64,000 nt of DNA, taken from NCBI GenBank assembly GCA_032718475.1, contig JAUCBJ010007470.1, positions 1 to 64,000 of the forward strand, in the 5' to 3' direction. This document shows, piece after piece, positions 811 through 36,340 of this stretch (position 1 is its first letter; every line of letters begins with the position of its first letter). This DNA is from Nemertoderma westbladi (taxonomy: Eukaryota > Animalia > Xenacoelomorpha). The notes beneath the pieces were generated by a model. The model was not told the origin of the DNA. It saw only the letters and a program-made list of their open reading frames with translations, and searched no databases. Position numbers and translations under genes: made by a program.

Positions 811-2445
811 TATTTAATTTATTTTATTGTAAATCAAACAAACAAAGTAAAAACTTTTAAACTAAAACCATTACAAATGATTAATTGCGATTAAAGCAAG
901 AGATTATATATATAAGATATTTTCAAAAATAATACAGGTCTTAAACTGAGAAATAGCCTAAATTCGGTTTATTGATTGGTTGATTAGCTGGTGGGTAACT
1001 ACTGTATAAACAAAAAATTATTGCGTAATAATCACTAATGCTCGTATACACGTAGCTGGAACCTGACGGAATCTCATGTATCATACTGCTTGGTTTGTTG
1101 ATTTGGCGACAGCAGTCGTGGAGTTGGCAATCAATATAACATATGCATGATGCGTGTAGTTGGTGACCACGTTGTCAGCATATACAGTATACAGTGGTTG
1201 GTTGCGTGGTAGTGGTGGTAACGTGGTGAAAAGGTGAATAACCGTAGGGTTAGGCAAACATCACCATTGATTGGTTGGTTGGTGGGTGGGTAACAGCAGT
1301 GGATTGAGTAGCGATGGGATGGGGGCTAGCCATGCATTGTGAGGTTAGGCTATGTGAAGATGAATATGCAATGGTTGGTGAAAAATAGCGATTTGAAAAA
1401 TAATAGAAGTTACCTGATGCTAAGTGTAGACACCCGAACACCTGTAAAATAAAGGTTGGTGATTGGATGCAGTACTAGCATTGGGTGACTAATAACGCCT
1501 CTAGCGGAATAAGCGGGAACTTGAGAAGTTACCATGGTTACGGATGAAATGCTGACATCTGATTGGTTGAAATAATAACGACCACCGCAAAAGGTTGAAA
1601 TGGTTGCTTCTGATTGGCTGCAGTACCAGAAATGGATGGTAATGATGGGCTACGGGTGACCATGAAGCCGTGTACTAGTTTCTTATACTACTCATACCAA
1701 CAGGTATTTAATATTCTTAATATTGTTTACAGTCGTGAGAAAAAGAGTGGTAAAGAAGGTAGATTGAGAAGGTCCACAAAAATCGAGAAGATGCCGGTGC
1801 TGAGGCCGATACCGCGGCTTCTTTTATTGGACTTTATTTAACTTTACCCCAATTAAACTTGTAGTGCGATTTGATATATCTTTATATTAATGGTTCGTTA
1901 TGTTGCGTCGCGCGAATTACAGTACAGAGCGTACTCAAACGTTAATTAGACTGTTAGGGCAGGTCCCCAGATCCTGCTACCACTATGGCAGTAATGTGGT
2001 ACTACTACCTGTACTGTAGCTGTCAGCCCAGTAGGGCAGGCCCGATAAGCATAGCCTATTCATTATTTAGTTGATCAAGAGTGGGTTGGTTCAGCCCCGT
2101 CAACTAAATAAGTCATTGAGGGCTATAGCGCCTAGGGCACCATTGAAGGCAACGGCTTGATACGCATCTGCATTAGAGATGATACACGCCCCGCCCTGTC
2201 TATACTGGATGCTCCTCTACCAGTGTTAGGTAACCTAACCCAGGAGGCACACTTGGTTCAGGGTGTAACAAATGGACCCCTACAGTCGGCAGCAGGGCTG
2301 TAGGCCATGGATAGGCGGAAGGTAATCAACCAACGGCTAGACATGCTGACAAGGTCGGCGGAAGGTAATCAACCAACGGCGACCTACTGCGAAGACACTT
2401 GTAGGAGTTGCGACCACAAGCGGTTTACCCCCGCAACTGAAAGAT

Positions 2446-3368
2446 ATGAGTATGAGAACCCTCCAGGAGAAATACCGGCTCGGTCGTCGCCCGGGTCAAC
2501 AAGGACCGCGTCCCTCAGTGGTACACCAGGCTGGGGTCGATAAATTGGCTACTGGAACAGAAGACAGAGAAGAAAGAAGAACCAACCTGTTGAAATGTAA
2601 AAAGACACTAAAGATTGCTACAATGAACGCACGCACGCTGAAAGCACAGAGCAAACAGGGTGACATGGTCGCTCTGGCAATTGAATATAACATCGACATC
2701 ATCTGCATCCAAGAACATCGGATTTGTCATGAAGACACTGCCATGAAGTACAATGACATTGGAAATGGATGGACGTTAGTAACAAGCTCAGCAGTAAGAA
2801 ACTCGGCCAATGCATCACTTGGTGGAGTAGGAATTGTGCTAAGCCCATTTGCACTTAAGACCCTAAACAACATCGAATCTATAAATTCCAGGGTTATGAT
2901 CGCAACATTTGATGGGAATCCCAAGACAACAGTTATATGTTGCTACAGTCCAACCAATGCATCAGAGCCAGAACAAGCAGTCAAGTTTTATGAAGAACTG
3001 ACTGGACTTATTAAGGACATCCCGAAACACAATGTTAAAGTCATTGCTGGTGACCTGAATGCGCAAATTGGCCCAGAAGACATCAAGGGTTACACCTATA
3101 ACACCAGTTCTAACAGAAATGGGTACTTACTCTTAGACCTAATGGAAGAAGGTGAATTGATACCAACAAACAACACATTCGAAAAGAGTAAGGGGAAGAT
3201 ATGGACCTTTCAATACCCTAATGGAACCAAAGCACAACTGGATTACATCCTTATAAACAAAAAGTGGAGAAATAGCATGATCAACTGCGAGGCATACAGC
3301 TCGTTCAACCTAATTGGTTCGGACCACAGAATTGTGACTGCAGAGATCAGACTCAGTTTGAGAGCCAG
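2446..3368 (+). CDS. RTE ORF, N-terminal apurinic-like endonuclease (EEP) domain
   Basis: Motifs ATMNARTL, ICIQEHR, AGDLNA, QLDYIL, SDHRIV. Confidence 0.93.
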
Positions 3369-4563
3369 TGTTCGCGCTTTCAGACCTTTGGCAGTTTAAC
3401 CCGCCAAATTAAGATGTCTTCTAGATATTAAATCGCTTTTTAGCCTATGACAAGTATTTGATTCACTACACTAGTCGAAACCAATCCGTGCGCGACCATT
3501 CACCCGCTGGATATTCCCGGGAGATTGGGTTCGACGGTTTAATTTTGTTGCTATGTAAGCCTAATGTATTATTCGACTGACAGTATTATATAATCTCTGA
3601 CAATATTATTTACCTTCGGGAATATTAACAGTTCCTTTAGGACGTGGCGCTTTATCTACATAAACAGAGTTATGACTTAAACTACTCACAACGATATGGC
3701 TTAATTATAATTCACATATATGGCGCATTCTTTAGGAATGCTTCTTTAACAGACTCACTCATACACAATGCTGCACAATACTGCACACTAATCTGCCGAT
3801 CTTCACTGATTTTAGTCACATATAAAAGGAACACAGACTGACTCATGTAGGGTCTATCAAATAACATTAGATTCACTTCAAACCACTTTAACATAAGTCA
3901 CAATCGTTTATCTGTAACCTTTCTCTCTTACCTTCGGTATATCAAGAATATTGGGTGTCGGGGTTATTTCTCGTTATTCCAATATAATAATTCATCAACA
4001 AATATAATGAATAACCGACAACAAATAGCAGTATGCAATATTCACAAAGCCAGTTATGCAGTACTGCAGTATGCAGTGATTACGAAATTGCAGAGTGTTT
4101 GTTTCGTCAGTTAAAGGATATATGTCCTTGTAATTAAACCTACTAGTGTTGAGCTAAAAAGCATAAAACATAAAACACTAAAAGCCGTTCTTTCGTGGCT
4201 TTGAAAAACTCGTGACTACTGCTCTATACGAGTATACCAACCACTCTTATTCCACGAAGCTCCCGTTCAACACAGAGAAAGAGCAGTGAGATAGGACATT
4301 TTCAGTTCAGTACTCTGTGATTGGTCAAAATCAAGGCTAACTCAAAATTCTATTGGGAGATACAAAAACAAGGCTATGACGCAACCTCCCTAGGCTTGTT
4401 GGCCGATTAAACAGAGCCCAGATGCCTGCGTACAGCAAATCAGCCAATAAGCTGGTAACTTGCACTATTTTTAGCTGTAGATCACTTTGAGAGTATTCTT
4501 AGCGACTGGGGGGGAACTGGCCAACAAGGCAAACGAATCAGTTATCCCACAAAAGCTTTTACA
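3369..4563 (-). repeat. 3' LTR (1195 bp)
   Basis: Direct repeat of 14143-14826 plus 18894-19404. No differences seen by eye, and the ORF track gives identical peptides in both copies. Confidence 0.95.
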
Positions 4564-4572
4564 CCGCTCCCA
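4564..4572 (-). other. Polypurine tract
   Basis: TGGGAGCGG directly precedes the TGTAAAAGC start of the 3' LTR on the - strand. Confidence 0.7.
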
Positions 4573-5464
4573 GAAAATGGGATTTAAGTCTATAAAATAT
4601 ACAAAATCACAGTTTCTAAAATATAAAAATACTCTAAACAGTTAGTCTTTCTTGCGCGGACGGCGTTTACGCAGTTTCTTAAGGCTAGCAAGAGTCCTTT
4701 ACTCTTTGGGGGAAGCCACTTTACTAGGAGGGCCATAACTCCTGGGTGAAGGGTGCAATATGATTGCATTAAAAGGTTTGGGTTTACGGTCGGTGTCTCG
4801 TCCATGTCGATATGCTTCTCCTCGAGCTGATTTTCCTCCGCTTGTCATGGGATACGTTCATCCAAAACTCTCGCAGAGAATAGGGTTTTCTAAGCTTGAT
4901 ATCTTCTTTGAGATTCGAGGTTTCCCAATCGAACTGAGATACGGCCAATTCGTTTATCGATTGGACTTAATGTTATAACTTACGTTTATCTGAACAAACG
5001 CAGGTTTCTTTGTTGATCTTTATAGAATAGCATTTAACTCGTGTCGTACAACGCTCTCCTTCACCTTGATGAAGGGTTGTATCGCGTTAAACGGGGACAA
5101 CCATACGGTTGGATAGTGATATTAGGTGTCCGCGTCACAATCCGGCTAGGTAAGATGGGCGGCTAGCTAGAAATCACTGTCGGAGTGTTACCGATTAATT
5201 GTTAGGGTAGCACTAGATCTTGAACAGTGAATACCGTCCGCGAGGATCCGCGACACCACCAGGATCGCAGGTCTGAGGTCCAACTAAGGAATGAGGAGGT
5301 TTGACCGAGTATTACGGGACTCTGATCATAGGTTTACTCTAGGATCGTTAGAGCCGAGTGAGCATAGGTGATACGTCAAACAAGTTTCGCTCGAAACTCC
5401 AGTAAATATAACGAACACCACTGTGTTTAACACAACGTTTCCGTGGATGTTTATGTCTTTCCGT

Positions 5465-6238
5465 TTATTGGCTGGGTCTAGGGCATTTACCGTAATAATA
5501 CCTAAAAACGTACGTCTTGTAGGGGAAACGCGAGTGATCTTTCTCCAGCTTACAATATTCCTCCATCCGTTCGAAGCTATTCGGTACAACAGGTAGCGGT
5601 CGATCGGCGGTAAGATACATCATAGGGGAATCGAGCCGTTTGAGTTCTACCATGCGGTCATGATGTATACCTTGAGGATATCGAGTTTCTAGATTTTGTT
5701 GACTGGCAATATTGAGATATGTTTCTATCAGGAATTCCAGATAATCGTTGAAGTCGCTGCGTTTATCCGGCTCCTCAACGTTTTCTCTTTCGAGTCTGTT
5801 TCGAATAGAATTCTCGTGTTCCATTCTCGGTTTATCGTTCCGCCTCCGCTGGGTAGGATATTTCAATCGTACCATTTCCCTTTTGGTGTCGACATTGTCC
5901 GTATCGTGTAAATCGATAGGATGACCAGTAGTTAAGAAGCCCATATACGTACCATTACGCTGCGTATATCGAGCAGCGAATTTTCTATAGTCCAACTCCC
6001 GCGAGAGCTGCACTTGGGACATTGTCAGTTCGATATAACGACCATCGTCCTCTGCAGCAGTTGGACTAACGTCGCCGCGTATTAAGCTATCAACAAACGC
6101 TTGTAAAAGTAGAGTATATCGCTCCCCGATACCAAGACCATCTTCTATCAACTCCGTCATGTCTGCTATATATGAGTTTATCCACATTATAAGGAGTTTA
6201 TATTTAGGCGAGCGGGCGTCGCTGCCTACCCCAATCAA
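5465..6238 (-). CDS. Extra ORF of unknown function at the env position of the LTR element
   Basis: 257-codon ORF (track start is TTG; first ATG gives MWINSY), same strand as gag, no signal peptide or TM segment evident. Confidence 0.55.
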   Translation of the reverse strand: MIGVGSDARSPKYKLLIMWINSYIADMTELIEDGLGIGERYTLLLQAFVDSLIRGDVSPTAAEDDGRYIELTMSQVQLSRELDYRKFAARYTQRNGTYMGFLTTGHPIDLHDTDNVDTKREMVRLKYPTQRRRNDKPRMEHENSIRNRLERENVEEPDKRSDFNDYLEFLIETYLNIASQQNLETRYPQGIHHDRMVELKRLDSPMMYLTADRPLPVVPNSFERMEEYCKLEKDHSRFPYKTYVFRYYYGKCPRPSQ

Positions 6239-6988
6239 CCCCCGGACAGGACGAGATCCTCAGCGCCGATGTGTCGTCGCCGCCGTACTTTCGCCAACGA
6301 CGTAGCCGCACAACGACAACGACAACCGGCACAAGTCACTCGACTGTCCGTCCCAAAGGCTTAGATGTACTTCAGGTATTCCTTGGAGAGTTAGGTTACT
6401 TTACGATTGCGACTAGCTACTGTAAACACACCTTAGCAGTAACATTCACCTATAAACTCACAAATACCACACACACAACTTGTCACAAATTACATACACT
6501 CGGGTCACTTGTCCGTTAGTCAATGCCTTCCAGAATGCCACTGTATTATTATGTATCCTTGGATACTATCAGTGCACTATTTATTCCCTATGCTATTCAA
6601 TGGGACAAGCTTTCTATTGTTCTTTTAACTCAATTCTAATTCTAGCGTGGTTGTTGCTATGGTGGCATTATGCAAAGCTAGCGGTAGAATTAGGGTAGTT
6701 CCAATGCATACAGATCTGGAATGTTATTTAATAGTATTCTTTAATAGTCAATGTTCGGTTTTATACATGACTTTATGAATTTTATCGGCTATTGACTATG
6801 TTTGGGAGACTTTCACACACTCGTACGCATGATAAGATAAATCTCCGCTCCCTTGATTGATTAATTAATGGAATTTTGGGAACTTTATAAATTGCGTAAA
6901 ATGGCAATTTATTAAACTCATTAAAAGGCATGAATTTAAATTGATTCCCTGAAATTTTATTATTTGATAATTAAATGGACATATTTGG

Positions 6989-7810: not shown

Positions 7811-10800
7811 TTACGTTATGGAGTCCCTAGATGTTTGAAGGATTAGGGAGGTGGTCGTGGGAAGAGAATCTTGCCTTCCACAGTTTCCGGAGAGTCCTCC
7901 ATTCCCTTCCGATAAACACAAACGACCGACTGGGTGATTGAGTCGCTGCATCCTGAATACAATTCCAGGTTTCCTCTTCGTCCTGGAATAGTGACGATAG
8001 AAACATCGCTCAAAGTAGATGACGGCGTCACAAAGCCGATTCCAGGAGCTATAGTGGTCCGTCGCTCTCTGCAGGAGAGGTGAGAGTCCCTGCGAGACGT
8101 CTGATGTTCCAGAGCTCCAATCGCTCTCTCTGATCTTCATGAAGGATCCACTCGCGGTGGGGAGGCCCAGATCCACGGCGTCGTCCCTGGCAACATGTAA
8201 TACCGACAGATCTATCCCGGATTCAAATAACTCCGATCCACACGTCCGGGTTTCAGGTTCGACTTTCTCCGCTCCCTTGGCTGGTATAATCTCAGTCGGA
8301 GTAAGATGGGAAGGCCATTCATTCTCCTTACTCAGGAAGTCGGGTTCACCTAATCGGTCTGTAGTATCTGTCAGTTCTTGAGGAGTTGCTCCTCTGGAAG
8401 CGATGTCCGTTGGATTAAACTTCTTGGGGCAATATCTCCATTGATCTACATTGGAGCTAAGATTGTCATTATCTGAGGAGTGTGGTGTTCCCTCAGTTGG
8501 GTCGTCTCCCTCACTAGTATCATCTTCCCATTCACTCATCTGGCAGACGCGATCTTGAAGCAGTCTTTCCCTGAGCGTTCTACCGGAAGGTCCAGTAAGG
8601 TACCAACCTACTCTAGTTCTTACCGCATAGGTCTGTAGTGGCTGCGGTTGAGCAGGCCGTTTCTCTAATGTCTCCAGCGCCTCATGCGCGTTTTGGCCGA
8701 TGAGTATTTGCACTCCAGGATAATCAGTCTGGAATCGAGGTATGTTAAGATGTTGGATGCTCTCATCCTCGTCCCAATTATAAAGGTCTGCTTGAGTAGT
8801 AGCGAAGTTCTTTATAGCCACCATTTTCACTGACCTTATGCTATGTTCTCCTAGTTCGTCCTGGGGGGTGGACAACTCACATATATAATAGTCGGCAGCT
8901 ACAGTAGAATTCCAAACCTGCATGATCCCTGACAGGTTTAGCTTGGTTCGGAACTTGGGTTGTCCAGCAAAGATGACTTCGGCTAGTTCTTTATCGATGA
9001 ATGTTCCTGTGCTACCGGAGTCCAGGAGGGCGTTCACTATATAGCTCTTCTGAGGTCCGTGGACCCGTAACTGGACTACAGGAAATTCTCGGATTCCTAT
9101 ATTGGAAGTTGGCGCTTTCCAAGATGGTTGTTGATCGGAAGTAGTTAAGGTAAGGTCGCTGTCTGTGTCTTTCTCATACACGAGTGCTCGATACACTGCG
9201 GTGGTGTTTATTAGGTAACAGGATTCGTTTTGGTCGGAGAACTCGTCCGTATAGAATCCTTCCATCTCAGATTGATCAGTGTCGTTCACATCACTGAATT
9301 GGACATGTAGTTCGGACTCACTTACCTGACTCGGGCTGTTTCGTTCGAATTCCGTGTGCAACAAGATATGATGTTTTGCGCCGCACTTTGCACACCTTGC
9401 GTCGGAGTTACAGGTTCGCCGTTGGTGTCCTCGTCTGAGGCAATTATAACACAACCGCTTATCCCACATGACTTCACGTCTATCCTTTAGTGATTTCCTC
9501 AGGAATTTATCACACGCATTTAAACGGTGGGGCCCGTCGCACAGCACACATTTCGGCTTGATGTTACTTACTTTAACCTGTGCTATGTGGTGCACACTTG
9601 TTCTTTCCTCGGGCTTTCTCACCTGAATTCTTTTAGGAGACGTAGGAAGGGTTTTTTGTACCGGTTCCCTTCTGTCATTGGGTCGAGACTCGGATTTACT
9701 TACCTGATCTTTAGGCATTTTATTGACATAATAAGATCTGTCAGTGTCTTTCCCGCTGTCCTCTCCTTGAGAAGTTTGGCTTTCACCGTCGTCGGTATAA
9801 CATACTGGTGTTACCCTTCTCCTAGAAACGGGTTTCTCACTTACCTTGTTTTCCAATGTCTTCTCTCTGGACTGCCTTAGGAGCTGTAATTTCACTTCTC
9901 CATCTAAGAATGACATGAGATCAGCCATGGTAGGGTCTCGTCGTTGTTGTTCCATCATATATAACACTTTCTTATCCCAGCGTGTACCTACTCCACCCTT
10001 CGGTAAAGTAGAAGCCACTGCTCTAATAACCATAGCACTCTGATACTCATGAGACTTACCTAGCCAATCTAATTGTCTGCAGATCTCCTGAATTTCATCG
10101 GAAAACTCTATAATCCCGCTGCTAATAAACTTTCGGGGCGCTACCAACTTTGCATACAAATACCCAGCTATGTTATTCCTATTACCATACCTGATGTTTA
10201 GTGTATCCCAAACTTGTCTTAATCCGTCTGGATGTCCAATAAACCTTAACGCCATTAACTTGGGGGATCCTTCCAAGCACTCGATGAGGTATCTAAGTTT
10301 TTCTCCATTAGATAGTACAGAGTTCTGTATGTTATCTTTGTAATATTCATTAAAAGGTAACCATTTCATCTCATCTCCATTGAACTTAACGATCTCTCCA
10401 ACCTTTACCGCTTGCCGGGCTTCGGTTCTAGCCATTTGACGCGTAAAACTTTCTTGGGCCATCGTGCTATTTAATATCGAGTTATCGGTATATAAATTTC
10501 TCGGATTATGATCAGTTCTATAGGGAATATCATTATCAACAGGTCTATAATTACCCTTAATAGGGTTCACTATAGGAGTTTCTACTTCGCTAGCAGTGTA
10601 TATGCGTGTAGGCTCCACACCTTGCGCATGCAATACTTCAGACCTAACAGGTTGACACATTGTTACAGAGGGTGGTGTTATACCCTTTTGGGTATTTACT
10701 AATTTATCGCGTTCAAGCGCGATACTTTGCTGCACTTCTTGCAACTCTAGCCTACTTTCCCTTACTGTGCCCTTGAATTGCTGGACAGTCTCCTGCATCT

Positions 10801-11968
10801 GCCCGAGCAGGATATCCATCCCCCGCCGTCTCTCGTCCACCCATTCGACCGCCGAAGCGGGAGTCGCCAACGTTGTAGCGGGCGGACGAGGGACAACGGG
10901 CGACAAATTGTGAATATTTCGCTCGGGGTCCAGGACCTGAACTGTCTCTTGGGCAGTTCTGCGGGGCACAGGTAGCTTAGTGCTATGTAGAGGGAATTTA
11001 TAGGTAGTCTCAGGGAGCACAGGTATGTCTATCACCGAAGGGGTGATTTCAAGAACAGGCCTAATTATTTCAGGCTCATCTACTATAGTAGGGAGTCTTT
11101 CTATTTTAATTATTTGGTCTGTGGGCTCTGTACTACCTAAGTTAGTGTTATTTAGTTGTCTTCTAACAGCTGGAGGCAAATCAGGCAATTTCTGCCGGTG
11201 GAATGTTCTTTTACGTCTGCTTAGGCGAGATCGATTTCTTCCGCCTTCAGTGTCGGTGGTATCGCCTTCCTCAGATGAGGTATACCCTTGTCTTTTGGGA
11301 GTAGATCGACTCATCATCTGCATATTACTAGCTGCTAACTGTTTACTGAAGTCGTCTTGCTTCTCTTGAAGATTTTCCAACTCCAGTTGGATGATCTCTT
11401 CAGCCGCTTTTCGTTCTACTTCCGCCATTGCTGCCGCTTTTGCCTCTGCTGCTGCCGCTTTTGCCTCTGCCGCTGCCGCTTTTCGTTCTGCTTCCGCCAC
11501 TGCTGCCGCTTTTGCCTCTGTTCGTTCTGCTTCCGCCACTGCTGCCGCTTTTGCCTCTGTTCGTTCTGCTTCCGCCACTGCTGCCGCTTTTGCCGCTGCC
11601 GCTGCCGCTTTTGCCTCTGCCGCTGCCGCTTTTCTTTCTGCCTCTGCCACTGCTGCTATCTTTCTGTCTTCTATACGCTTTTTCCTTACTTGTTCTTCCC
11701 TTTCTCTAGCGATGCGGAGTTGTTCATCGAATTTAGCTTGGTTCGCCGCTAACCTATCCACATCAATCGCATCTAACACAAGTTTGGCTCCTTCGCTATT
11801 AGGGCTAAGTCCCTCTAGCCTTCTCCTCAACTCTTCATCTCCCACAAAACGCTGATAGTCTGACAGATAGATGTCAATGGCATCCCTCTTATGCGGTTTC
11901 TCTGCTGTCACTTCGCTCTCGGTTGTATCTAGTAGACTGTCTGACAGATTCTGCTTTGCGTCAGACAT
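7811..11968 (-). CDS. BEL/Pao Gag-aspartic protease polyprotein with RT, most of RNase H and integrase missing
   Basis: DUF1759-like KFNGDEMKW..EKLRYL. Knuckles CVLCDGPHRLNAC, CYNCLRRGHQRRTC, CAKCGAKHHILLH. Protease LLDSGS and RTRVGWYLTGP. Then directly the RNase H tail WRYCPKKFNPTDIASRG and YSSWNRL. No YxDD or DDE. Confidence 0.9.
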   Translation of the reverse strand: MSDAKQNLSDSLLDTTESEVTAEKPHKRDAIDIYLSDYQRFVGDEELRRRLEGLSPNSEGAKLVLDAIDVDRLAANQAKFDEQLRIAREREEQVRKKRIEDRKIAAVAEAERKAAAAEAKAAAAAAKAAAVAEAERTEAKAAAVAEAERTEAKAAAVAEAERKAAAAEAKAAAAEAKAAAMAEVERKAAEEIIQLELENLQEKQDDFSKQLAASNMQMMSRSTPKRQGYTSSEEGDTTDTEGGRNRSRLSRRKRTFHRQKLPDLPPAVRRQLNNTNLGSTEPTDQIIKIERLPTIVDEPEIIRPVLEITPSVIDIPVLPETTYKFPLHSTKLPVPRRTAQETVQVLDPERNIHNLSPVVPRPPATTLATPASAVEWVDERRRGMDILLGQMQETVQQFKGTVRESRLELQEVQQSIALERDKLVNTQKGITPPSVTMCQPVRSEVLHAQGVEPTRIYTASEVETPIVNPIKGNYRPVDNDIPYRTDHNPRNLYTDNSILNSTMAQESFTRQMARTEARQAVKVGEIVKFNGDEMKWLPFNEYYKDNIQNSVLSNGEKLRYLIECLEGSPKLMALRFIGHPDGLRQVWDTLNIRYGNRNNIAGYLYAKLVAPRKFISSGIIEFSDEIQEICRQLDWLGKSHEYQSAMVIRAVASTLPKGGVGTRWDKKVLYMMEQQRRDPTMADLMSFLDGEVKLQLLRQSREKTLENKVSEKPVSRRRVTPVCYTDDGESQTSQGEDSGKDTDRSYYVNKMPKDQVSKSESRPNDRREPVQKTLPTSPKRIQVRKPEERTSVHHIAQVKVSNIKPKCVLCDGPHRLNACDKFLRKSLKDRREVMWDKRLCYNCLRRGHQRRTCNSDARCAKCGAKHHILLHTEFERNSPSQVSESELHVQFSDVNDTDQSEMEGFYTDEFSDQNESCYLINTTAVYRALVYEKDTDSDLTLTTSDQQPSWKAPTSNIGIREFPVVQLRVHGPQKSYIVNALLDSGSTGTFIDKELAEVIFAGQPKFRTKLNLSGIMQVWNSTVAADYYICELSTPQDELGEHSIRSVKMVAIKNFATTQADLYNWDEDESIQHLNIPRFQTDYPGVQILIGQNAHEALETLEKRPAQPQPLQTYAVRTRVGWYLTGPSGRTLRERLLQDRVCQMSEWEDDTSEGDDPTEGTPHSSDNDNLSSNVDQWRYCPKKFNPTDIASRGATPQELTDTTDRLGEPDFLSKENEWPSHLTPTEIIPAKGAEKVEPETRTCGSELFESGIDLSVLHVARDDAVDLGLPTASGSFMKIRESDWSSGTSDVSQGLSPLLQRATDHYSSWNRLCDAVIYFERCFYRHYSRTKRKPGIVFRMQRLNHPVGRLCLSEGNGGLSGNCGRQDSLPTTTSLILQTSRDSIT
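11400..11660 (-). repeat. Coding Ala/Glu/Lys-rich tandem repeat (39-bp core, TEAKAAAVAEAER) in the Gag N-terminus
   Basis: Repeated ctgccgcttttgcctctg units. Confidence 0.85.
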
Positions 11969-13334
11969 GCTTGTGTGTACAGTTGAATGTCTACTGCTGT
12001 ATTACAGTCTGAGCAAGTCTAGTAACTCAGTATTAACTGATAGCCTAGTAATTAATTACCGGTACTGCTACTCAGTGTAGCGTGATATATATAATATATT
12101 AGAATACCGGTATGCTTATAGTATATATAACTATTATTACAGACTAGGTTTATCACAGAATACCGGTATAATTTTAGCACAAATATATATAAATATATAA
12201 TAGGCCTATCGGGAATACCGGTATACAGCTTACAGTTTGTAGTATATATAATTCTAGACTAGAATTAATTACAAGTACCGGTATAATTTCAGCCTAGATT
12301 TATAGAAATAAGATAATAGGCCTATCGTAAATACCGGTATATCAATTATTTTAGAATAATTGAATTTCTGAAATTTAGGGTTACTTGGTTACTTTAACTT
12401 ACTTTATTACCGTTATTTAAGCAGTAATCCAACTGATATTGAGACCTAATGGTTTTAGGGTATGCCTACTATTTATAAATCGTTGGATTTGATTTATAAT
12501 ATATATACCCGTTTTAATGGGTTTTGTCTATGTTTGAAATAAATGTTATTATTTCTGGGGAGTAATCACTACACAAAGCGGTGCACTTTCAGTGAAGTGT
12601 TACGTATAGGACACTAAAACAAATAATTCTAATTTACCTAAGTTACTTAATACTACAAATTACGTACAATTCGGGTTGAGATTACAATCTCTAAATAAAC
12701 ACAAAAATTTACAAAAAACACAAAATACGAATTTTTAGGGTAATTTTGCAAGAAGTCTACAAACCAGCCTAACAAAGGGTTAGAAAACTGGTTATTACTA
12801 CGGACAGGGTACTACGGTATTTGAAATAATAAGTAGTAGTAAATACACTGCGTTGTCTAGATAGGAAAATACCACCGCCTGACGACCTATAGCCGTATCG
12901 CTATAGGTTCTACGTTATGTATCACGGAGTGTTCCTACCTAGAAGTTAATAGAGCTAATCGAATGTGCCTATCAACCACTTTACAACACAGATATAGTGT
13001 CTACAATAATTACTTCGGAAAGTACTGTACACTAAACCCTAAATTAGGTACGAGTACTTGTACAACAGATAATCAGTAGTTAAATATACTTGAACAGCTA
13101 AAAGAACCACGGCATCTGCTGGAGTGACCGATGCACAAAATCACCAGTCTTTACCTACGCCGAGCAGCCCGTGTAGTACCGGGGTTAATTTAACTATAGC
13201 GGTATGTATAACAAACACAATTACTGTAGGAACAAACTTGGGGAATGAATGTTGCGGATAATCGCATAAACTCTGAATAATAAATATTACGCTACGCGTA
13301 CAAACTACTCAAACAAAATACAGACCGAACACTG

Positions 13335-13848
13335 ACAGACTACTATCAAGCCTAAACAAACTACGGTATATGCAGACTCCGAAATGATTAGGGAGTATGC
13401 GCTCTAACCCAGTAGTGCGACTTATTCTTTAGTTGGGGAATTACCTTACAGCGTTCGCTGCCCCTACTGCCTAATCGTACTTAATCGGACAGATGATCTA
13501 CACACGCGGCAATCCGTTCAGACCTAACAACAGCCAGACAACTATCCAGCCTACAAATTATCTAAATAAAATTATACGCTACCCGTACAGACTTACACAA
13601 ACAAAGTACAGACTAAACGATGGCAGACCACTCTCAAGCCTAAATAAACCACAGGACATGCAGACTCCGAAATGATTAGGGAGTATGCGCTCTAACCCAG
13701 TAGTGCGACTTATTCTTTAGTTGGGGGATTACCTTACAGCGTTCGCTGCCCCTACTGCCTAATCGTACTTAATCGGACAGGTGATCTACACACACTGCAA
13801 TTCGTTCGGACTTAACAGCAATCAGACAACAGCTCAGCCTACAAATCG
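13335..13848. repeat. Direct duplication (offset 288 bp) in the LTR element leader
   Basis: Cores 13370-13505 and 13658-13793 are near-identical. Confidence 0.85.
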
Positions 13849-14130
13849 TCTGTACTATCTGATCAGGCTTACACGCCTTCTGTTCAATACTGGCCTACAA
13901 ATAAATAAAACTTGACAGAAATAAGTAAACCATATAAAGGAATAAGGGGTGATCAATCCCTAATCCCCTAAACAGCCTACCGGTATGCAACAATCAAATC
14001 GAATAATACTAGTGTACTTATACGGAAGTACCGGTTAGGACAGCTAGGCCTATGGACCTACAGATGTACCGGTTCAGGTTTACCGGTTGACCGGTACTTT
14101 CAACTTTATTGCTTACTGCAACAAAGAAGC

Positions 14131-14142
14131 TATATCCTTTAA
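14131..14142 (-). other. Primer-binding site, self-complementary type
   Basis: TTAAAGGATATA (- strand) abuts the 5' LTR end, lacks TGG, and is the exact complement of the LTR 12-mer at 18952-18963 / 4111-4122. Confidence 0.65.
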
Positions 14143-15383
14143 TGTTCGCGCTTTCAGACCTTTGGCAGTTTAACCCGCCAAATTAAGATGTCTTCTAGAT
14201 ATTAAATCGCTTTTTAGCCTATGACAAGTATTTGATTCACTACACTAGTCGAAACCAATCCGTGCGCGACCATTCACCCGCTGGATATTCCCGGGAGATT
14301 GGGTTCGACGGTTTAATTTTGTTGCTATGTAAGCCTAATGTATTATTCGACTGACAGTATTATATAATCTCTGACAATATTATTTACCTTCGGGAATATT
14401 AACAGTTCCTTTAGGACGTGGCGCTTTATCTACATAAACAGAGTTATGACTTAAACTACTCACAACGATATGGCTTAATTATAATTCACATATATGGCGC
14501 ATTCTTTAGGAATGCTTCTTTAACAGACTCACTCATACACAATGCTGCACAATACTGCACACTAATCTGCCGATCTTCACTGATTTTAGTCACATATAAA
14601 AGGAACACAGACTGACTCATGTAGGGTCTATCAAATAACATTAGATTCACTTCAAACCACTTTAACATAAGTCACAATCGTTTATCTGTAACCTTTCTCT
14701 CTTACCTTCGGTATATCAAGAATATTGGGTGTCGGGGTTATTTCTCGTTATTCCAATATAATAATTCATCAACAAATATAATGAATAACCGACAACAAAT
14801 AGCAGTATGCAATATTCACAAAGCCACCCTGCAAACAATTTAACGTTCAAATGGCGTTGAAAAACGAAAAATTTATAACAAATAAACGCTAGAATCTGAC
14901 GTTAGTAAAAGTAGATCGAACGTTCGTTTGGCCGCTTTTGTGACGTTAAAATTACCCCCAAATCAACGTTGAATTTTACGTCAAATATATAAATTCCAAC
15001 GTTATCTTTAACCGTTGAATTTGCAGTATATTAATCGTTAAACCAACTTCAGTTAATCGACAAAACTGACGTTAGATATCCATATTCCAACGTTTATTTA
15101 ATCAGGGATTTTCAGTTTTTCAGGCCACTAGGTAAATCTCACGTTACCTTACGTTGTACATTGCACATTATACTGTAATTATCTCATCAGCATTATTAAT
15201 ACAACATTTAGGCCTATAATATGTTATGTGAATTATAAATGAATGGAAACTTTATGTTTGAAACTTATTCATTTATTTATTTACATTATAAATTAAATTA
15301 TTACAAAATTATCAGATAGTTAGTTGACAGCACAGATACAGTCTATAGTTCGCATTGGCAAAAATAAGTCTTACTTAAACGAA

Positions 15384-18134
15384 TTACGAGTCCACATCCG
15401 CACCGTCACCATCGCCCTCATTATCGCTAATTGTCGATCCCGCATCGTCTTTGCTGCATCGTTCTTTCGGTTTTCCGCGAGCCACACTAAAAAAACAAAA
15501 TAATTAATTAATCAACTAATTTACTGTAAACGAATTCCTGTAATAATAATGTAATAACGTAAGTAAGTACTGTATGTATGTACTCAGCACCGCAAATTTA
15601 TTCATTACTTACAATTTAATGCAATGGTGATAAACAGTTTCAGAGCGTAATATTGTAGCAAAATGGATGCCATAATGTAGGCCTACAGTACTAACCAAAT
15701 CCCCCATAGTGTAGGCCTACAGTACTAACCCAATCACCCATAATGTAGGCCTACAGTACTAACCCAATCCCCCATAATGTAGGCCTACAGTACTAACCCA
15801 ATCCCCCATAATGTAGGCCTACAGTACTAACCCAATCCCCCATAATGTAGGCCTACAGTACTAACCAAATCCCCCATAGTGTAGGCCTACAGTACTAACC
15901 CAATCCCCCATAATGTAGGCCTACAGTACTAACCCAATCCCCCATAATATAGGCCTACAGTACTAACCCCTTCCCCCATAATGTAGGCCTACAGTACTAA
16001 TCAAATCCCCCATAATGTAGGCCTACAGTACTAACCCAATCCCCCATAATGTAGGCCTACAGTACTAACCCAATCCCCCATAATGTAGGCCTACAGTACT
16101 AACCCAATCCCCCATAATGTAGGCCTACAGTACTAACCCAATCCCCCATAATGTAGGCCTACAGTACTAACCCAATCCCCCATAATGTAGGCCTACAGTA
16201 CTAACCCAATCCCCCATAATGTAACCAGCGTGAACCCTAACCAAACCTAACCCACCCCTGACCCAACTCAACAACAGTATTCATTGAATTAATAAAACGA
16301 TTTCATTTAATTACAGTAATACTTACTAATTATCCCCTCCGGGTCTATTGCTTGCCTGCGGAAAAAACACCGATATAGCGCCATCCACCGCACCATCTTC
16401 AAAATCTTTGAGAAGAACAGCTCCTATAATACAAAATAATCATATATTTATAACAGATATCAATATTATGATTAAATCATATTTATTAAATATGATTTAT
16501 AACAAATATTTAAATCTTCCCTACACAGTATTAATTGGTACAATATTATGATATTAATAGTAGGCCTATGCATATAGTTTATTGCAAAATAATGGTTAAA
16601 CAACGCACGCAACCCCCCCCCCCCCCCCCCCCCCCCATATCTAACGAGGACAAGAAATAACATTGCACCCGTGCATACAGTACCGATTAGAACCGACTTT
16701 ACAGCAATTTAATTTCAAAGTAATTTCCATGATATTAATAATTAATAATAATATTGCATTTAAAAAAAGATAGCGCTGGCTGATGGTATCCATAGTTTAC
16801 TTAATATTCTAGAATATTATAATATCATATAAACAATTTTTGTCTTCTTTACACTCGCTCACATCGTTCGTTCTTGTAACAAACCACTTGGTTCCACACA
16901 ATTTAAGTGCTACATATTTACAGACATGTATGTAAATATTTATTACAGTATTTACTTTACAATTAGTCTAAAAGTACAATAAACCATTTACGCTGCAACT
17001 TACGTGAAACTCCAATTCTTGGGTTTGAAACTGGCCGGTCAGAAATAGTCGCTGAGCGATCGAACATGGCTTGATGAGATTGACGGTCAATGATAATGGG
17101 TTGCGAGTGTGGGCGGTCGACACTGGGCCGTGGATGTGGACGGCCAACTACCGTGGGATGTGAATGTGGACGGTCCAAAGTAGTGGACGATTGCGAAAAA
17201 TCGAATGAGACCGGGACAGGTTGCGGGGCCAATGTGGATGGGGAGAAAGCGCGCCGAGAGCGTTCTTCATTGGAAAGTAGAGAGATGCTACGTGGTTCTA
17301 GTTGTCCAATATTCAGTATTGAATTTGATTCAAACTGCAAGTATTCATCACTTGGTAATTGCGAAAACTCAAGATCCTGTTGCACCACCGGCGGTGCAAG
17401 CGATGTTACATAAGGATACTCAGGAATTGCAGGGATGTTTCTGAAACCAATAACAGTAAATTCGGATGCTCGTGTTATACAGTATATAAAGTTTACATTA
17501 AAATTACATTTATTCCAAAATTGTAACATTACTTAACGCCGTTAGTATTAACAGCGAGTAGTTATTTAGCACTTTACAACCTTAGAGGACATTACAGCAT
17601 TGTATTGGCCTGTACATTTAGTATTGTATTTGGTGTCATTGTTTACGTGGTAACCATGACGGCGTTAAGTAATGTCACCCTAAGTGGACAATACTTAACG
17701 CCGTCATTGGTTACCAAGTAAACAATAGGTGGAAATTTGCCGACAACGCGCTCCTCTATTGCCTTAGCTGCCAATAGATCATCTGAAAAATATTATTAAC
17801 ATTTAAATTTAGTCTACAGTACTGTAATAATTATTATTTGAATTAATAATTATTAGATTGTTAGATATTCATATACGATGATCCTATCTAATTATCAGAA
17901 TACTACCGTTAAAATACCTTTGCATGAGTTTCGAATAAATGTGCAAGGCCAAGATCCCCATTGCCCAACTGCAGTGTCACCAGCAGGTAACGACTCCCTC
18001 AGCGCCTTGGATGCAAGTTTAGTGTTTATGGGATATGCTGATGTAAGTCCATCGGCCGACAACCATCCACTACATATTGTTGCAACTTCCTCAACGCCAT
18101 CCGGGCCCGTGAAGATGACAACACAATAAGCCAT
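15384..18134 (-). CDS. 5-exon transposon accessory gene (about 313 aa, TnpA/DUF4806-like by inference): exons 18134-17918, 17782-17695, 17440-17004, 16423-16327, 15486-15384
   Basis: All introns GT-AG and phase-compatible (942 nt). The N-terminus MAYCVVIF..VATICSGWL..W..PC and the late ISVFFPQASNRPGG resemble second-ORF proteins of animal EnSpm. Confidence 0.65.
15671..16224. repeat. 34-bp minisatellite, about 16 copies
   Basis: Unit cataatgtaggcctacagtactaacccaatcccc. Confidence 0.95.
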
Positions 18135-19409
18135 ATGTACAGAATATATACAGAATATCGTTTATAAACAGAATATCGAAATATTACAGTTAGTTCAGGT
18201 TTACCAATCAGACAGCAATTTAATTAATGTATTACAAAAATTTAAGGAAATAAAAAAAACAATAAAACTGCTAATGCAATAATACCCATCACAGTTCAGT
18301 ACCTACTTGTATTGCATGCATATGATATGTTCTTTAGGTAAGTAGATGCATTTACTAATAATGTGAATAATAATAAGTGTAAATACAGTAAACATTATAC
18401 TGTAATATGCAACTTTACTCAAATCCTATAATATAATCCTATAATAATACTGACAAATATAGTGTAAGTAACCGTAACCAATCAGAAGCAATATATTATT
18501 ATAACACCATAGGCAGGTATTGTGTTGTTGGGCAGTGTGTCTACTGTAATATCCATCCACATGGGAATGTATCATGGCATCTGTCTGGCGCATTGTAGAA
18601 CTACAATATGAACGTTATTTCACTTAAAAATAACGTTGAAAATTAACGTTTATAATTAAACTCGGAACTAACGTTGCTATCGAACGTCATCACACATTGA
18701 GAGATCGATGAAAATTAACGTTCGAATTTTACGCTGAATTAACGATTATGATTGGTTTATTTTAAACATGTAATTTTTCTAGCATAGTGGAACGTTAATC
18801 AAACGTTGAACAATATGTTATTTATTCATGTGATTTTCCAACTTAATCCACACCTATATTAACGTAAATTTAACGTACCATGTTTGCAGGGCAGTTATGC
18901 AGTACTGCAGTATGCAGTGATTACGAAATTGCAGAGTGTTTGTTTCGTCAGTTAAAGGATATATGTCCTTGTAATTAAACCTACTAGTGTTGAGCTAAAA
19001 AGCATAAAACATAAAACACTAAAAGCCGTTCTTTCGTGGCTTTGAAAAACTCGTGACTACTGCTCTATACGAGTATACCAACCACTCTTATTCCACGAAG
19101 CTCCCGTTCAACACAGAGAAAGAGCAGTGAGATAGGACATTTTCAGTTCAGTACTCTGTGATTGGTCAAAATCAAGGCTAACTCAAAATTCTATTGGGAG
19201 ATACAAAAACAAGGCTATGACGCAACCTCCCTAGGCTTGTTGGCCGATTAAACAGAGCCCAGATGCCTGCGTACAGCAAATCAGCCAATAAGCTGGTAAC
19301 TTGCACTATTTTTAGCTGTAGATCACTTTGAGAGTATTCTTAGCGACTGGGGGGGAACTGGCCAACAAGGCAAACGAATCAGTTATCCCACAAAAGCTTT
19401 TACAGCCAG

Positions 19410-21531
19410 CAAACCCAGGACAAGCAAGCAAATCAACTATGACTGGGAGAAACTCAGAACTGACAATGCTGTAAAGGATGCTTATACAGTAGAAGTTCAA
19501 AACCGCTTTGAAGCACTTCAGTCAATGGATGAAGACCAATCCACCGATTCAATATACCAGAATATAATAACAGCCCACAAGGAATCAGCTAAGAGGCATA
19601 TCCCCCAGAAACCTAAACGAAAACAGTATGTGCCATGGCAAAACTCTGAGGTTACTTGTAAGAGAGAAGATCTTAAGATAGCCTACAAAGTTAAAACCGA
19701 ACAACCAACAACCGAAAACATTAACAAGGTTGAGAAAGCTAAGGACGATCTTAAATTGGCCTACAACATCAGCCAGGAAAAGTACATACAGGATAAAACT
19801 GAAGCAATTACAACTGCTCACATACAGCAACAATCAAGACTTACCTGGCAAACTGTAAATGAGGTATCTAGTCGGAAAAGTTGTGCAAAGGGGCGCCTCA
19901 AAGCCGATAGTCCTGAAGAACGTGTTGGGAAGTGGAAAAATCACTTCAGCAACTTGCTTGGGCAGCCACCAAACATCGAGGTCAGCCCTACAAGGAAAAT
20001 ATATGACAAGACACTACCTATAGAAACAGGGGACTTCACACCTGCCGAACTCCAAAGAAGCATTAAAAGCATGTCCAATAATAAAGCGAGTGGATTAGAT
20101 GAAATCCCAGCAGAGGTATGGAAAACCGGAGTGCTAAATAGACCACTATTGAATGTTTGCAACCGGATGTTAAAAGGAGAAAAGCCACCACCAATTTGGA
20201 CAACTTTTGGTCAACTAAAGCCTCTCCCCAAGAAAGGAGACCTCGGCATACCAACAAACTATCGTGGGATCTGTCTGCTTGTGGTAGCTGCCAAAATATA
20301 CAATAAAATGATTCTATATAGGATTAGGCCTCACATAGAGAAACTACTGCGTAAGAGCCAAAACGGATTTCGACCAAGTAGATCAACAATAGCTCAGATA
20401 CTTGCACTACGGAGACTGATTGAAGGAATTAAGTCAAAGAATCTCCCCGCAGTCATGACTTTTGTGGACTTCAAGAAGGCATTCGACTCCATCCATAGAG
20501 GTAAAATGCTTGAAATCCTAAGAGCTTATGGAATACCAGAAGTAATTGTTGATGGCATTGGATTGCTATATTGTGACACAGAAGCGCAGGTACTCTCACC
20601 AGATGGTGAAACTGAGTTTTTCTCAATCCTGGCTGGCGTACTGCAAGGTGACACATTAGCACCATTACTATTTGTAATTGTGCTGGATTATGCAATGAGG
20701 ACGGCCACAAAGGGTGAAGATCTGGGATTCACACTTCAAGAACGCAGAAGTAGTAGATATCCGGCAACTACAGTCACAGACACCGACTTTGCAGATGACA
20801 TCGCCCTGCTCTCTAATACGCTAGCAGATGCACAGCTTCTACTAAATAAAGTGGGGAGGGCTGCTAAGGAGGTTGGATTGCATATAAATGCTACCAAGAC
20901 CGAATTCATGACCTTTAATGTTGATGGAAACTTGACAACCATTGATAATAATCAACTAAGGAAGGTCGATGACTTCCAGTACCTTGGATCATGGATAGAG
21001 AGTAGCAAAAAGGACATAGAAGTTAGGAAAGCAAAGGCTTGGGGAGCTCTATCAAAAATGGATACCATCTGGAAATCAGATCTCTCCAGGCACCTGAAGA
21101 CCAAGTTCTTTCGAGCCACAGTGGAAAGTGTATTTTTATACGGGGGTGAGACCTGGACACTGACTAAATCACTTGAACAACGAATTGATGGTTGCTACAC
21201 AAGACTACTAAGGGCAGCCCTAAACATCAGCTGGAGACAACACATGACAAACGCCGAGCTTTATGGTACAATACCACCTGTATCAACCACCCTCCGTGAA
21301 CGCAGATTAAGATTCAGTGGGCACTGCTGGCGAAGTAAAGACGAGGTCATACCAGATCTACTTCTCTGGCAACCAACTCATGGAAAGCGTAGTCGTGGAC
21401 GACCTGCCATAACATATATAGATCAACTTGAAAGGGATACTGAACTTGGGAGAAACGAAATTGCGACAACTATGGAGAATCGGGAAGCCTGGAAGGATCT
21501 CATTTCCACTGTCCGAGTTCGCTCGACCTAG
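19410..21531 (+). CDS. RTE ORF, linker plus reverse transcriptase and C-terminus
   Basis: Motifs KASGLDEIP, NYRGICL, QNGFRPSRST, FVDFKKAFDS, GVLQGDTLAPLLF, FADD, FQYLGS, RLRFSGH; no stops. Confidence 0.95.
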
Positions 21532-34627: not shown

Positions 34628-35803
34628 TTACTTCAGCTCCGGAAAATCCTCCTCGACGTTGAACCCAGCTGAGTGCGCGGCGTTGTGAGGCGTGCCACCC
34701 GGTCCCGAGTAGCCACCGCCCCCCGCGCCCCTACCGCGCCCCCTCCCTCGACCACCACGGCCCCCCCGGCTCGGCCCTGCCGGCTCGATGAACTTGAGAT
34801 CGATATCGAGCGTCTGGCGAACCCTTCCGGAGGTCTTGAGACAACGCTCGTAACCAACGGAAAACTCATCGCCTTCTTCCTTCTTCAACAAACTCGTATT
34901 CTTCCACTTCTTCTTGTCTTCGCCCTCCCCAGCGCGACGCAACTTCAGATCTACCGATTTAGACTTATCGGCGTCTTTCGCGTTCAACGCTTTGTATTCG
35001 TCGAGCGTCATGAAATTAACTTCCGGGGTCGCGAGTTGCCCGGAAGCAGCCTGCCTGGCCTCGTCTTCTTCAACCTCATCGGCCCAATCCTTCTTGGGTT
35101 CCTCCTCGACCGGGCCCCCCTGCGCAGGGGGCACCCCCTCGCCGCCCCCGGGGGCCTCCACCGCCTCCGTGTCCCGCACCGGGTCGCCCCAGTTGTAGGC
35201 ACCGCCGCCCTCACGCTTCTCGCTCGCCTTCACCCCGGTACGATCGGAGCCGCTGTGCCGGTCGAACTCGCGTTTACCACCGCGGAATCCGTAGCCCCCG
35301 CGCCCCCCGCCGCCGCGGAAACGGCCCCGCATCCCGCCGCCCCCTTGGCGTCCACCCTCGTCCGGGGCCCCCTGCCCCCCTCCACCACCGTAACCGCCTC
35401 CATACCCACCACCCCGCTCTTCGTCTCGTGGTTCGTGTACATTCTGGGAGTGATTCTCCTGACTACTAGGAGGGGGGCCTCCGTAACCTCCTCCGCGTCG
35501 ACTCCCCCTCCCCCCTCCTCTGGGATGCCCCCCTTCCCGCTTATCATTCCTATCCTCACCAGAATAGTTATCATGAAGTTGACGAGAATCGCTTACAGAC
35601 TGGACTTTCTCCTTGGCAATCTTGTTATCCACTATCACTGCCGGTTTCGCTTTGGGTTTCCTCTCGGTTTTCTGTTGATTAATTTTTCCAACCTTTTCTG
35701 CTTTTGATTTTTGCTTAACGAAACTTAGATCCTCTATAATGCTGTCAGAATCGACATCAAGTAAAATGTCGTACATGTTCTTTGTTCCCACAGCAACTTC
35801 CAT
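34628..35803 (-). CDS. SERBP1: SERBP1/HABP4 (PAI-RBP1/Vig) family RGG RNA-binding protein
   Basis: GKREFDRHSGSDRTGVK..KREGGGAYNWG, MTLDEYK, RGG boxes, C-terminal EDFPEL. Confidence 0.92.
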   Translation of the reverse strand: MEVAVGTKNMYDILLDVDSDSIIEDLSFVKQKSKAEKVGKINQQKTERKPKAKPAVIVDNKIAKEKVQSVSDSRQLHDNYSGEDRNDKREGGHPRGGGRGSRRGGGYGGPPPSSQENHSQNVHEPRDEERGGGYGGGYGGGGGQGAPDEGGRQGGGGMRGRFRGGGGRGGYGFRGGKREFDRHSGSDRTGVKASEKREGGGAYNWGDPVRDTEAVEAPGGGEGVPPAQGGPVEEEPKKDWADEVEEDEARQAASGQLATPEVNFMTLDEYKALNAKDADKSKSVDLKLRRAGEGEDKKKWKNTSLLKKEEGDEFSVGYERCLKTSGRVRQTLDIDLKFIEPAGPSRGGRGGRGRGRGRGAGGGGYSGPGGTPHNAAHSAGFNVEEDFPELK

Positions 35804-36340
35804 TATGATGTTTTGGATGTAACTATTTCTTGAATGTCTGAATGTTAAACCAAAGGCACATTAGCTCATTCATAAATTCACCATCATGAATGATCGCAAA
35901 CAAACAGGTATATATCATAAATTTAATAAATCTGTCAATAATCGATATTTCGGATTGTTTTCAATTTCAATGAATTATTTCGGTTTATTGGGATGTAGCA
36001 ACTCCAAATATTGTTAAGAGTGTATATACAGTATTTGTTTGTATATCGAACAGTGGACCAAAATGTTTTATAGTTTCCCCCCGCACTTTACTGCTTTAAT
36101 TATTGATATAAACTCAACAAATATAACAAATAAAAATAAATATAAATTTAAATCTTTAGCAAAAGAGGTAAGATGAAAGTTAATCAGGTTGACCAGTATT
36201 CAGGTATTGTAATGCAGAAATGTCTTCTGGATAGAAATAAATTATACCGTAGGCCCTACCGCTAATAATAAATTATTTACATACCGGTACCGGTACTTGT
36301 GTGAAGCTGAAGAGATTCACTACGTGCCGGTGCCGGCAGA

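Follow-up and report, generated by a model that had tools for sequence, protein, structure and literature searches.

A primer-binding site complementary to its own LTR in a BEL/Pao-derived retrotransposon of Nemertoderma westbladi: a candidate for self-priming

The ICTV profile of the Belpaoviridae describes priming by tRNA, with an 18-nt primer-binding site (PBS) for tRNA-Arg or tRNA-Gly (PMC8742986), which raises the question of how a BEL/Pao-derived element with another kind of PBS could start its minus strand. Priming by an element's own RNA is established for the Tf1/sushi elements of another superfamily, Ty3/gypsy. For Tf1 and Tf2 of Schizosaccharomyces pombe, of the Tf1/sushi group, the relevant parts of PMC7175516 and PMC5341516 describe a non-tRNA PBS that is complementary to a stretch of 11-12 nt in the LTR of the element itself. 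In the plant TAR lineage (Houba, Osr-1; Ty1/copia) and the Tcn1 clade, self-priming has been predicted from PBS-LTR complementarity, and the sections of PMC6317226 on these plant and fungal Copia and chromovirus lineages describe no splice-built primer. Our search of the literature, mostly the main texts of open-access articles, found no self-priming in BEL/Pao. We studied this question in a window of 64,000 nt, the whole stretch of DNA that was analysed, for which an earlier note had proposed a self-priming BEL/Pao element. The proposal is partly supported, by a non-tRNA PBS, by an above-chance complement and by distant families that show this relation too; the RNA start at position 18963 and the hairpin switch that were part of it are not supported. 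Judging from these sequence comparisons, self-priming in one geometry or another is probable.

Structure of the element

The element is a BEL/Pao-derived, non-autonomous LTR retrotransposon that was recently inserted. It is built as follows:

19405-19409, minus strand: target-site duplication CTGGC, 5 bp (partner at 3364-3368)
18892-19404, minus strand: first part of the 5' LTR (LTR nt 1-513, TGT start), 100% identical to nt 1-513 of the 3' LTR
14827-18891, strand not assigned: DNA transposon, 4065 nt, inserted in the 5' LTR only
14143-14826, minus strand: second part of the 5' LTR (LTR nt 512-1195, ACA end), 100% identical to the 3' LTR
7811-11968, minus strand: ORF of 1385 aa with Gag, DSG protease and a remnant of the RNase H tail
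5465-6259, minus strand: additional ORF, 264 aa from stop to stop, of unassigned kind
4564-4571, minus strand: short polypurine tract ahead of the 3' LTR, read from the sequence and resembling the tracts of related loci
3369-4563, minus strand: 3' LTR, 1195 nt, uninterrupted
3364-3368, minus strand: target-site duplication CTGGC, partner of the copy at 19405-19409

The span of 14131-18963 previously given for the element consists mostly of the 4065-nt DNA transposon inside the 5' LTR. This insert, which may resemble CMC/EnSpm elements, has CCC...GGG ends, 11-nt inverted ends and a 2-nt TG duplication; an Rfam search yielded only a miRNA-like palindrome below threshold, located in the insert. 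The identical LTRs and the intact target-site duplication indicate that the element was reverse-transcribed recently with its present PBS. Because the DNA transposon later split the 5' LTR between the PBS and the LTR 12-mer described below, this copy has probably ceased to work as a template.

The Gag encoded by the 1385-aa ORF has DUF1759 and three Cys-His boxes. The ORF has a BEL/Pao capsid region that matches PF03564 (Pfam, E=1.9e-11), and the triple Cys-His box and DSG protease motifs were read in its translation against a BEL/Pao motif list drawn from part of PMC554778. With these proteins, its TG...CA LTRs and its short polypurine tract, the element resembles the Belpaoviridae (genus Semotivirus), from which it differs in having no tRNA-type PBS, reverse transcriptase (RT) or integrase. 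Pfam and tblastn searches found neither enzyme in the element, whose pol is reduced to the RNase H tail remnant, and it is therefore classed as a non-autonomous derivative and not as a full member of the family. The best protein matches, about 30% identical, are all BEL/Pao polyproteins, whereas the Tf1/sushi elements encode Ty3/gypsy chromovirus proteins; the present element lacks RT, and its RNase H is incomplete. The additional ORF at 5465-6259 has no Pfam family and no atlas match. Elsewhere in the window lies a SERBP1-like ORF that is 28-49% identical to sequences of many animals.

The PBS and its complement in the LTR

Three positions define the candidate priming system:

14131-14142, minus strand: candidate non-tRNA PBS, at offset 0 from the LTR end
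18952-18963, minus strand: PBS-complementary 12-mer (candidate primer core), 5' LTR copy
4111-4122, minus strand: PBS-complementary 12-mer, 3' LTR copy

On the minus strand, TTAAAGGATATA (14142-14131) directly adjoins the LTR end ...GCGCGAACA (14143). The earlier note was right that no TGG follows the 5' LTR directly: the first lies 211 nt after it, and the 18-nt PBS for a tRNA 3' end of the ICTV description is absent. In an ARAGORN scan, the window contained 0 tRNAs, as did each of the 36 related loci examined (36 of 36). The perfect complementarity that had been reported between the PBS and the LTR is exact, and with up to one mismatch allowed the reverse complement of TTAAAGGATATA occurs in the window only at 18963-18952 and 4122-4111. 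Upon pairing, the LTR 12-mer's 3' end lies flush with the LTR boundary, also as described. In the parts of the Tf1/sushi literature cited above, the same two traits are found, namely a PBS complementary to the own LTR and a primer whose 3' end falls at the LTR boundary.

When the 1195-nt LTR was dinucleotide-shuffled 5000 times, an anchored complement of at least 12 nt arose once, and across the 9579 positions of the internal region a complement of 12 was reached by the PBS alone. Compared with 400 pseudo-PBS positions, with offsets of 0-4 and splice-joined matches allowed, the PBS gives p=0.0075. The best duplex that the 22-nt PBS region can form in the whole LTR is at the 12-mer site (-19.6 kcal/mol, vs -14.7 for the next), and the PBS core is predicted to be open (0.85 kcal/mol). 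The pairing of the 12-mer with the PBS core is A/U-rich (-11.6 kcal/mol), which counts against self-priming. The missing landing site for a tRNA and the 12-nt match to the element's own terminal repeat make priming by its own RNA likely. We lean, by a little more than even chances, towards a reading in which the RNA begins some way upstream of the 12-mer, the PBS pairs with the 12-mer and this RNA segment primes the minus strand in place of a tRNA, with a borrowed RT. Two variants of self-priming were rejected for this element: priming at a poly(A) site (the LTR has no AATAAA, and its sole ATTAAA is 579 nt downstream of the 12-mer start) and a splice-built primer (the PBS finds its best match in one unbroken stretch).

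The same relation in distant BEL/Pao loci

The main comparison comprised 12 distant BEL/Pao loci in which the sequence itself defines the LTR ends. TGG is absent within 10 nt in 11 of them, and 10 have a complement of 10-15 nt (p<=0.0075), which in 9 of these 10 appears only when the LTR is joined across a GT-AG junction. One locus (L077) is borderline, with an 8-nt complement (p=0.052), and the complement is absent from the sole TGG element of the 12, L056 (4 nt, p=0.93). Wherever a locus scored, the pairing ends at a distance of 0-4 nt from the end of its LTR. When PBS and LTR were swapped between families, 108 of 110 pairs scored 8 or less, and the maximum of 10 was between sister families. 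Compensatory changes are present at 3 positions between L073 and L074 and at 2 between L012 and L061. As read from these sequences, the PBS-LTR pairing is family-specific, with compensatory changes. Hence, the covariation that the earlier note had asked about was found, the relation persisting with different letters in distant BEL/Pao families; these relatives are only 20-45% identical to the element by domain, so that covariation applies to a BEL/Pao clade and not to the element's own lineage.

In most relatives the complement is divided between two putative exons, the first contributing its last nucleotides and the second its first, with GTAAGT or GTGAGT donors in 16 of 19 splice-joined matches; it is unsplit in the present element and in three related loci. 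This predicted building of the primer across a splice junction sets the relatives apart from Tf1. For 37 loci whose LTR end was not defined, a blind scan gave a candidate of at least 11 nt in 16, which we treat as secondary evidence because LTR ends found in this way are circular. Candidates in L042, L044 and L070 were set aside as probable unrelated inverted repeats, and the 21 loci without a candidate of at least 11 nt include several that begin inside or after the LTR.

In a FastTree phylogeny (692 of 1621 columns), the long branch of the element falls outside the clade of self-complementary elements, a weakly supported placement (0.84-0.86). Searches of viral contigs gave no close relative: one yielded a weak locus, and two scans were empty. 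A 17-nt junction pattern in 14 viral contigs was attributed to chance, since 13 have no wider match and one extends to 23 nt.

The start of the RNA and the identity of the primer

Where the RNA starts bears on which segment could act as primer. The features involved are:

18966-18972, minus strand: predicted second helix of 7 bp that lies past a 2 x 3 internal loop, arm in the LTR
14121-14127, minus strand: leader arm of the predicted second helix
14104-14126, minus strand: predicted 9-bp leader hairpin directly 3' of the PBS, competing with the second helix
14161-14182, minus strand: predicted 8-bp hairpin near the U5 end (z-score of the region -1.07, not significant)
4109-4149, minus strand: 41-nt island, made up of the 12-mer and the 27 nt upstream of it, that a diverged LTR variant retains

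Past a small bulge, within a range picked after the duplexes had been inspected, the second helix amounts to 84 bp summed over 18 elements, where 47.9+-5.5 bp are expected from shuffles and 45.6+-5.0 bp from swaps, and 0 of 2000 of each reach 84. The count leaves out L054, L040 and L048, with weak, non-canonical donors, and L074, L078 and L061, each close to a kept family. The present element has 7 bp (57 of 5000 shuffles). Energies of whole-tail extensions are significant in only 2 of 24 rows, and no TATA or initiator motif occurs at a fixed distance among the 18 elements. The predicted pairing suggests an RNA start 9 nt or more upstream of the 12-mer. The proposal that the 12-mer forms the first 12 nt of the RNA, with the start at 18963, is not supported, and it is further disfavoured by the exon-exon join that the complement of most relatives spans. 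The CCAAT boxes invoked upstream of the 12-mer exist, but they are 202 and 234 nt away, with a reverse copy at 326.

By the predicted energies, the second helix of this element loses out to the leader hairpin (net about -4.1 kcal/mol, vs -6.9 for the core alone). The AAGGA/TCCTT hairpin noted earlier is present but is no better than in shuffles (z -0.26 and -0.54), and its use as a switch has no support above chance. Variants come from X1, a single run of contigs, possibly of DNA and possibly from the assembly's own sample. One contig differs at 14122, the sole variant seen there, and by our reading turns a G-U pair of the leader hairpin into A-U, which favours this hairpin and weakens the second helix. 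The flanks of the 41-nt island do not align in the diverged variant (the alignment breaks off loosely at 4109 and 4149, and no substitution is listed); that the island is one contig is our reading of depth arithmetic.

Could the element nevertheless follow Tf1 strictly, the RNA starting at 18963 or one base before and its first 12 nt folding back in cis to be cut off as primer? All the evidence for core pairing fits this geometry, thermodynamics favour the core by itself in this element, the 27 nt that the X1 variant retains upstream may represent a core promoter, and the part of PMC7175516 that concerns Tf1 has it using its first 11 nt. We nonetheless hold it to be unlikely: the second helix lies upstream of the core in 18 elements and here, there is neither a TATA box 25-35 nt upstream nor a fixed initiator, the CCAAT boxes are more than 200 nt off, and in the spliced relatives pairing starts inside exon 1, with more of it upstream. 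In the uninterrupted 3' LTR, the distance from the start of the 12-mer to the LTR end is 754 nt, which leaves 742 nt between primer and LTR end; this distance and the predicted second helix distinguish the element from Tf1, and the helix makes it probable that the primer, unlike that of Tf1, is not the first 12 nt.

It is still less likely that selection maintains a genuine LTR-leader duplex for a structural role (in packaging, the dimer, translation or a poly(A) switch), with a host RNA such as a half-tRNA displacing the 12-mer as primer. Half-tRNA priming does occur in Ty1/copia lineages, according to a section of PMC6317226, and competing hairpins flank the PBS; yet the PBS letters vary freely by family and track their own LTR, which a conserved host RNA would forbid, all scoring cases have their pairing end within 0-4 nt of the LTR boundary, and the self-complement is missing precisely in the one TGG-type element. 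We give very little credence to a chance or relic match, A/U-rich and without present function. The element is defective, without RT and integrase, rare matches will surface when many windows are scanned, and the tie to the self-complementary clade is weakly placed in the tree. Such a match would be at odds with the shuffle result, with the recent reverse transcription with this PBS to which the identical LTRs and intact duplication point, and with the keeping of the 12-mer island and PBS in diverged contigs.

In the reading that we favour, the RNA would begin at least 9 nt upstream of the 12-mer, leaving room for the second helix, and the 12-mer would be transcribed as part of R. In Tf1/sushi elements, RNase H cleavage frees the primer, and a U5 stem-loop is required for priming. 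By analogy, a cut of the duplex after the 12th base would leave a 3'-OH opposite the last LTR base, from which a helper RT, supplied by an autonomous partner, would extend through U5. The primer may come from the 5' end of the same RNA, from its 3' R copy or from a short LTR transcript of its own. Most relatives would depend on host splicing to bring the primer halves together beforehand; here the primer is unsplit. Tentatively, and with more doubt than confidence, we suggest that a large BEL/Pao clade has exchanged the tRNA for a private primer-PBS pair. Its primer would be a bulged two-helix segment of R, usually made by splicing and not cap-proximal, supplied by the LTR end (that of the genome RNA at its 3' side, or that of a separate short LTR transcript in trans), and the RT-less element would carry an intron-free version of the pair and bring its own primer to a borrowed RT. 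A primer taken from a spliced, polyadenylated LTR end would explain how the intron survives replication.

If self-priming in BEL/Pao is real, priming without tRNA arose in the third LTR superfamily, in a form that departs from Tf1 by the second helix and the splice-built primer. It would free such elements from tRNA supply and, we infer, from silencing by tRNA fragments, and would account for their being missed by PBS-based annotation; to them this locus adds an intron-free, non-autonomous case.

The element and its nest

The window contains a three-level nest, in which a DNA transposon lies inside an LTR element that itself splits ORF2 (endonuclease and reverse transcriptase [RT]) of a LINE:

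Features of the nest
2350-3399: LINE endonuclease ORF, on one side of the LTR element
19404 to 3369, minus strand: LTR element, with a 5-bp duplication (CTGGC) on both sides
14827-18891: DNA transposon, 4065 nt, with CCC...GGG ends and a 2-nt duplication
19300-21531: LINE RT ORF, on the opposite side of the LTR element

The 5′ and 3′ LTRs, 1195 nt each, match at 100% identity, which marks the insertion as recent. The DNA transposon sits at LTR nt 512/513 of the 5′ LTR only, where it separates the LTR 12-mer from the primer-binding site described below, and entered it after the element had retrotransposed. The span 14131..18963, presented in the earlier note as the candidate, does have the pairing segments at its ends, but is mostly filled by this transposon, which carries exon-like pieces, a 34-nt tandem array (about 15570-16350) and a palindromic stretch (17643-17721) that matches an Rfam miRNA below threshold on each strand.

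A leader of 2174 nt precedes a single 1385-aa ORF. It encodes DUF1759, three Cys-His boxes, a DSG protease and an RNase H tail remnant, but neither RT nor integrase. The element is a non-autonomous BEL/Pao derivative. Its Gag N-terminus has an alanine-rich AEAKAAAA-type repeat (11370-11680, minus strand), and the leader holds a 288-nt direct repeat (13306-13851, 88%) and abundant ACCGGT/TACCGGTA palindromes. An extra 264-aa ORF between polyprotein and 3′ LTR (5465-6259, minus strand) has no Pfam or atlas matches, and more ORF-like sequence occurs around 4640-5100. Elsewhere, an intronless 410-aa SERBP1/HABP4-like ORF (34628-35860, minus strand; 28-49% identity to named animal proteins) is possibly a retrocopy.

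Complementarity between the primer-binding site and the LTR

The 12 nt after the 5′ LTR (PBS, 14142-14131) are, as the earlier note had seen, the exact reverse complement of LTR nt 442-453 (the 12-mer, 18963-18952 and 4122-4111), whose 3′ end faces the final LTR base. A complement of at least 12 nt occurs in 1/5000 dinucleotide shuffles, and among 9579 internal positions the PBS alone reaches 12. The lack of TGG at the PBS start also holds: TGG does not appear until leader position 211, which rules out pairing by a mature tRNA 3′ end at the usual place. We show, at the sequence level, a PBS position unable to take a tRNA 3′ end and predicted to pair with its own LTR in priming geometry.

Other parts of that proposal fared less well. 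The CCAAT boxes upstream of the 12-mer exist, yet 202 and 234 nt away, and the AAGGA/TCCTT hairpin suggested as a switch folds no better than shuffles. The element LTR has no AATAAA, and its sole ATTAAA is 579 nt downstream of the 12-mer start. A T-rich, splice-acceptor-like tract ending in TAG lies 31 nt upstream of the 12-mer (4150-4175 / 18991-19016, minus strand), with no strong donor found upstream; it may act in trans-splicing or as a weak cis acceptor.

No close protein relatives were found in the collections searched (best about 30% identity). The element's family was found in a single public run of contigs (X1), perhaps of DNA. One X1 contig matches the 3′ LTR at 4109-4149 only, with zero substitutions listed, and its flanks, 107 and 255 nt long, cannot be aligned; that the match comes from a single contig is based on depth arithmetic. 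A second contig runs from the LTR into the PBS: its 12 nt are identical, and there is one change at 14122. These contigs, from one run that is perhaps the assembly's own sample, point to selection on both the 12-mer and the PBS. The T-rich TAG tract is similar in the X1 variant.

Distant BEL/Pao families

We retrieved 81 loci with an alignment of 16 BEL/Pao polyproteins. In 12 of them, about ten families, the 5′ LTR end was fixed by sequence through the two-LTR repeat (with one mismatch in L079, and by likeness to L068 in L081); L050, L056, L064 and L066 were scored on the 3′ LTR. TGG is absent in 11 of these 12 loci. When the search was extended to matches spanning a GT-AG junction, complements of 10-15 nt (p<=0.0075) appeared in ten loci, of which nine required splicing for the match; L077 was borderline, and no complement was found in L056, the sole TGG element. 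Donors are GTAAGT or GTGAGT in 16 of the 19 splice-joined matches, despite a looser filter. Scanned blind, 37 further loci yielded 16 candidates of at least 11 nt, three of which were set aside.

PBS and LTR fit each other solely when both come from one family, with scores of at most 8 in 108/110 cross pairs. Changes on both sides of the pairing separate L073 from L074 (three paired positions) and L012 from L061 (two). The predicted pairing of PBS and own LTR is shown family by family. Those self-complementary loci whose ORFs are intact group as a single clade in the tree, and L056 falls outside it. The element belongs with neither: it sits, weakly supported, on a long branch, even though that clade gives its best domain matches. 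Because of this placement, the PBS/12-mer covariation that the earlier note sought in related BEL families is credited to the BEL/Pao clade and not to the element's immediate lineage.

In the LTRs of L073 and L074, the splice-built complement directly precedes AATAAA, and in 10 of the 24 LTR-PBS matches folded as duplexes the paired core is followed, at 0-33 nt, by a poly(A) signal. L070-L082 are BEL/Pao retrotransposons within GTDB contigs binned as bacterial genomes, likely animal host contamination.

RNA start and proposed priming mechanism

In many of the folded duplexes, a second helix lies upstream of the core, separated from it by a short bulge. Over 18 elements, and with a bulge range picked after inspection of the duplexes, this helix totals 84 bp, against 47.9 with shuffled tails and 45.6 with swapped families (0/2000 each); the energy of whole-tail extension is significant in just 2 of the 24 duplexes. 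In the element it is 7 bp, equalled in 57/5000 shuffles, and competes with a 9-bp leader hairpin that wins on computed energy and is favoured by the 14122 variant. No promoter motif fixing the RNA start was found. If the second helix is used, the RNA would start 9 nt or more upstream of 18963. That would argue against the start proposed at or near this position and would differ from Tf1, whose primer is the first 11 nt (PMC7175516).

According to the ICTV profile, BEL/Pao elements use tRNA-Arg or tRNA-Gly as primer (PMC8742986). For Tf1/sushi, self-priming has been described; for plant Tcn1 and TAR it is a prediction (PMC6317226, PMC5341516). A term search for PBS, tRNA and priming had zero hits in two BEL/Pao papers (PMC3118150, PMC554778), and the available parts of PMC3601003, PMC6934838, PMC3286476, PMC5408687 and PMC5443660 hold nothing on BEL/Pao priming. 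We found no report of BEL/Pao self-priming in the literature searched, whose coverage mostly excludes subscription journals.

The LTR-PBS complementarity is a real feature and, by analogy, would work like Tf1 self-priming, though the element is no Tf1/sushi member. The 12-mer would be transcribed and form a duplex with the PBS, RNase H would cut after the core, as in Tf1, and a helper RT would extend the primer. We consider it quite probable that the element self-primes, whatever the geometry. For the spliced relatives to keep their intron through replication, one R copy would have to be spliced and the other left unspliced. Which of them is spliced determines whether the 5′ end primes in cis or the primer is instead supplied by the 3′ end or a short LTR transcript.
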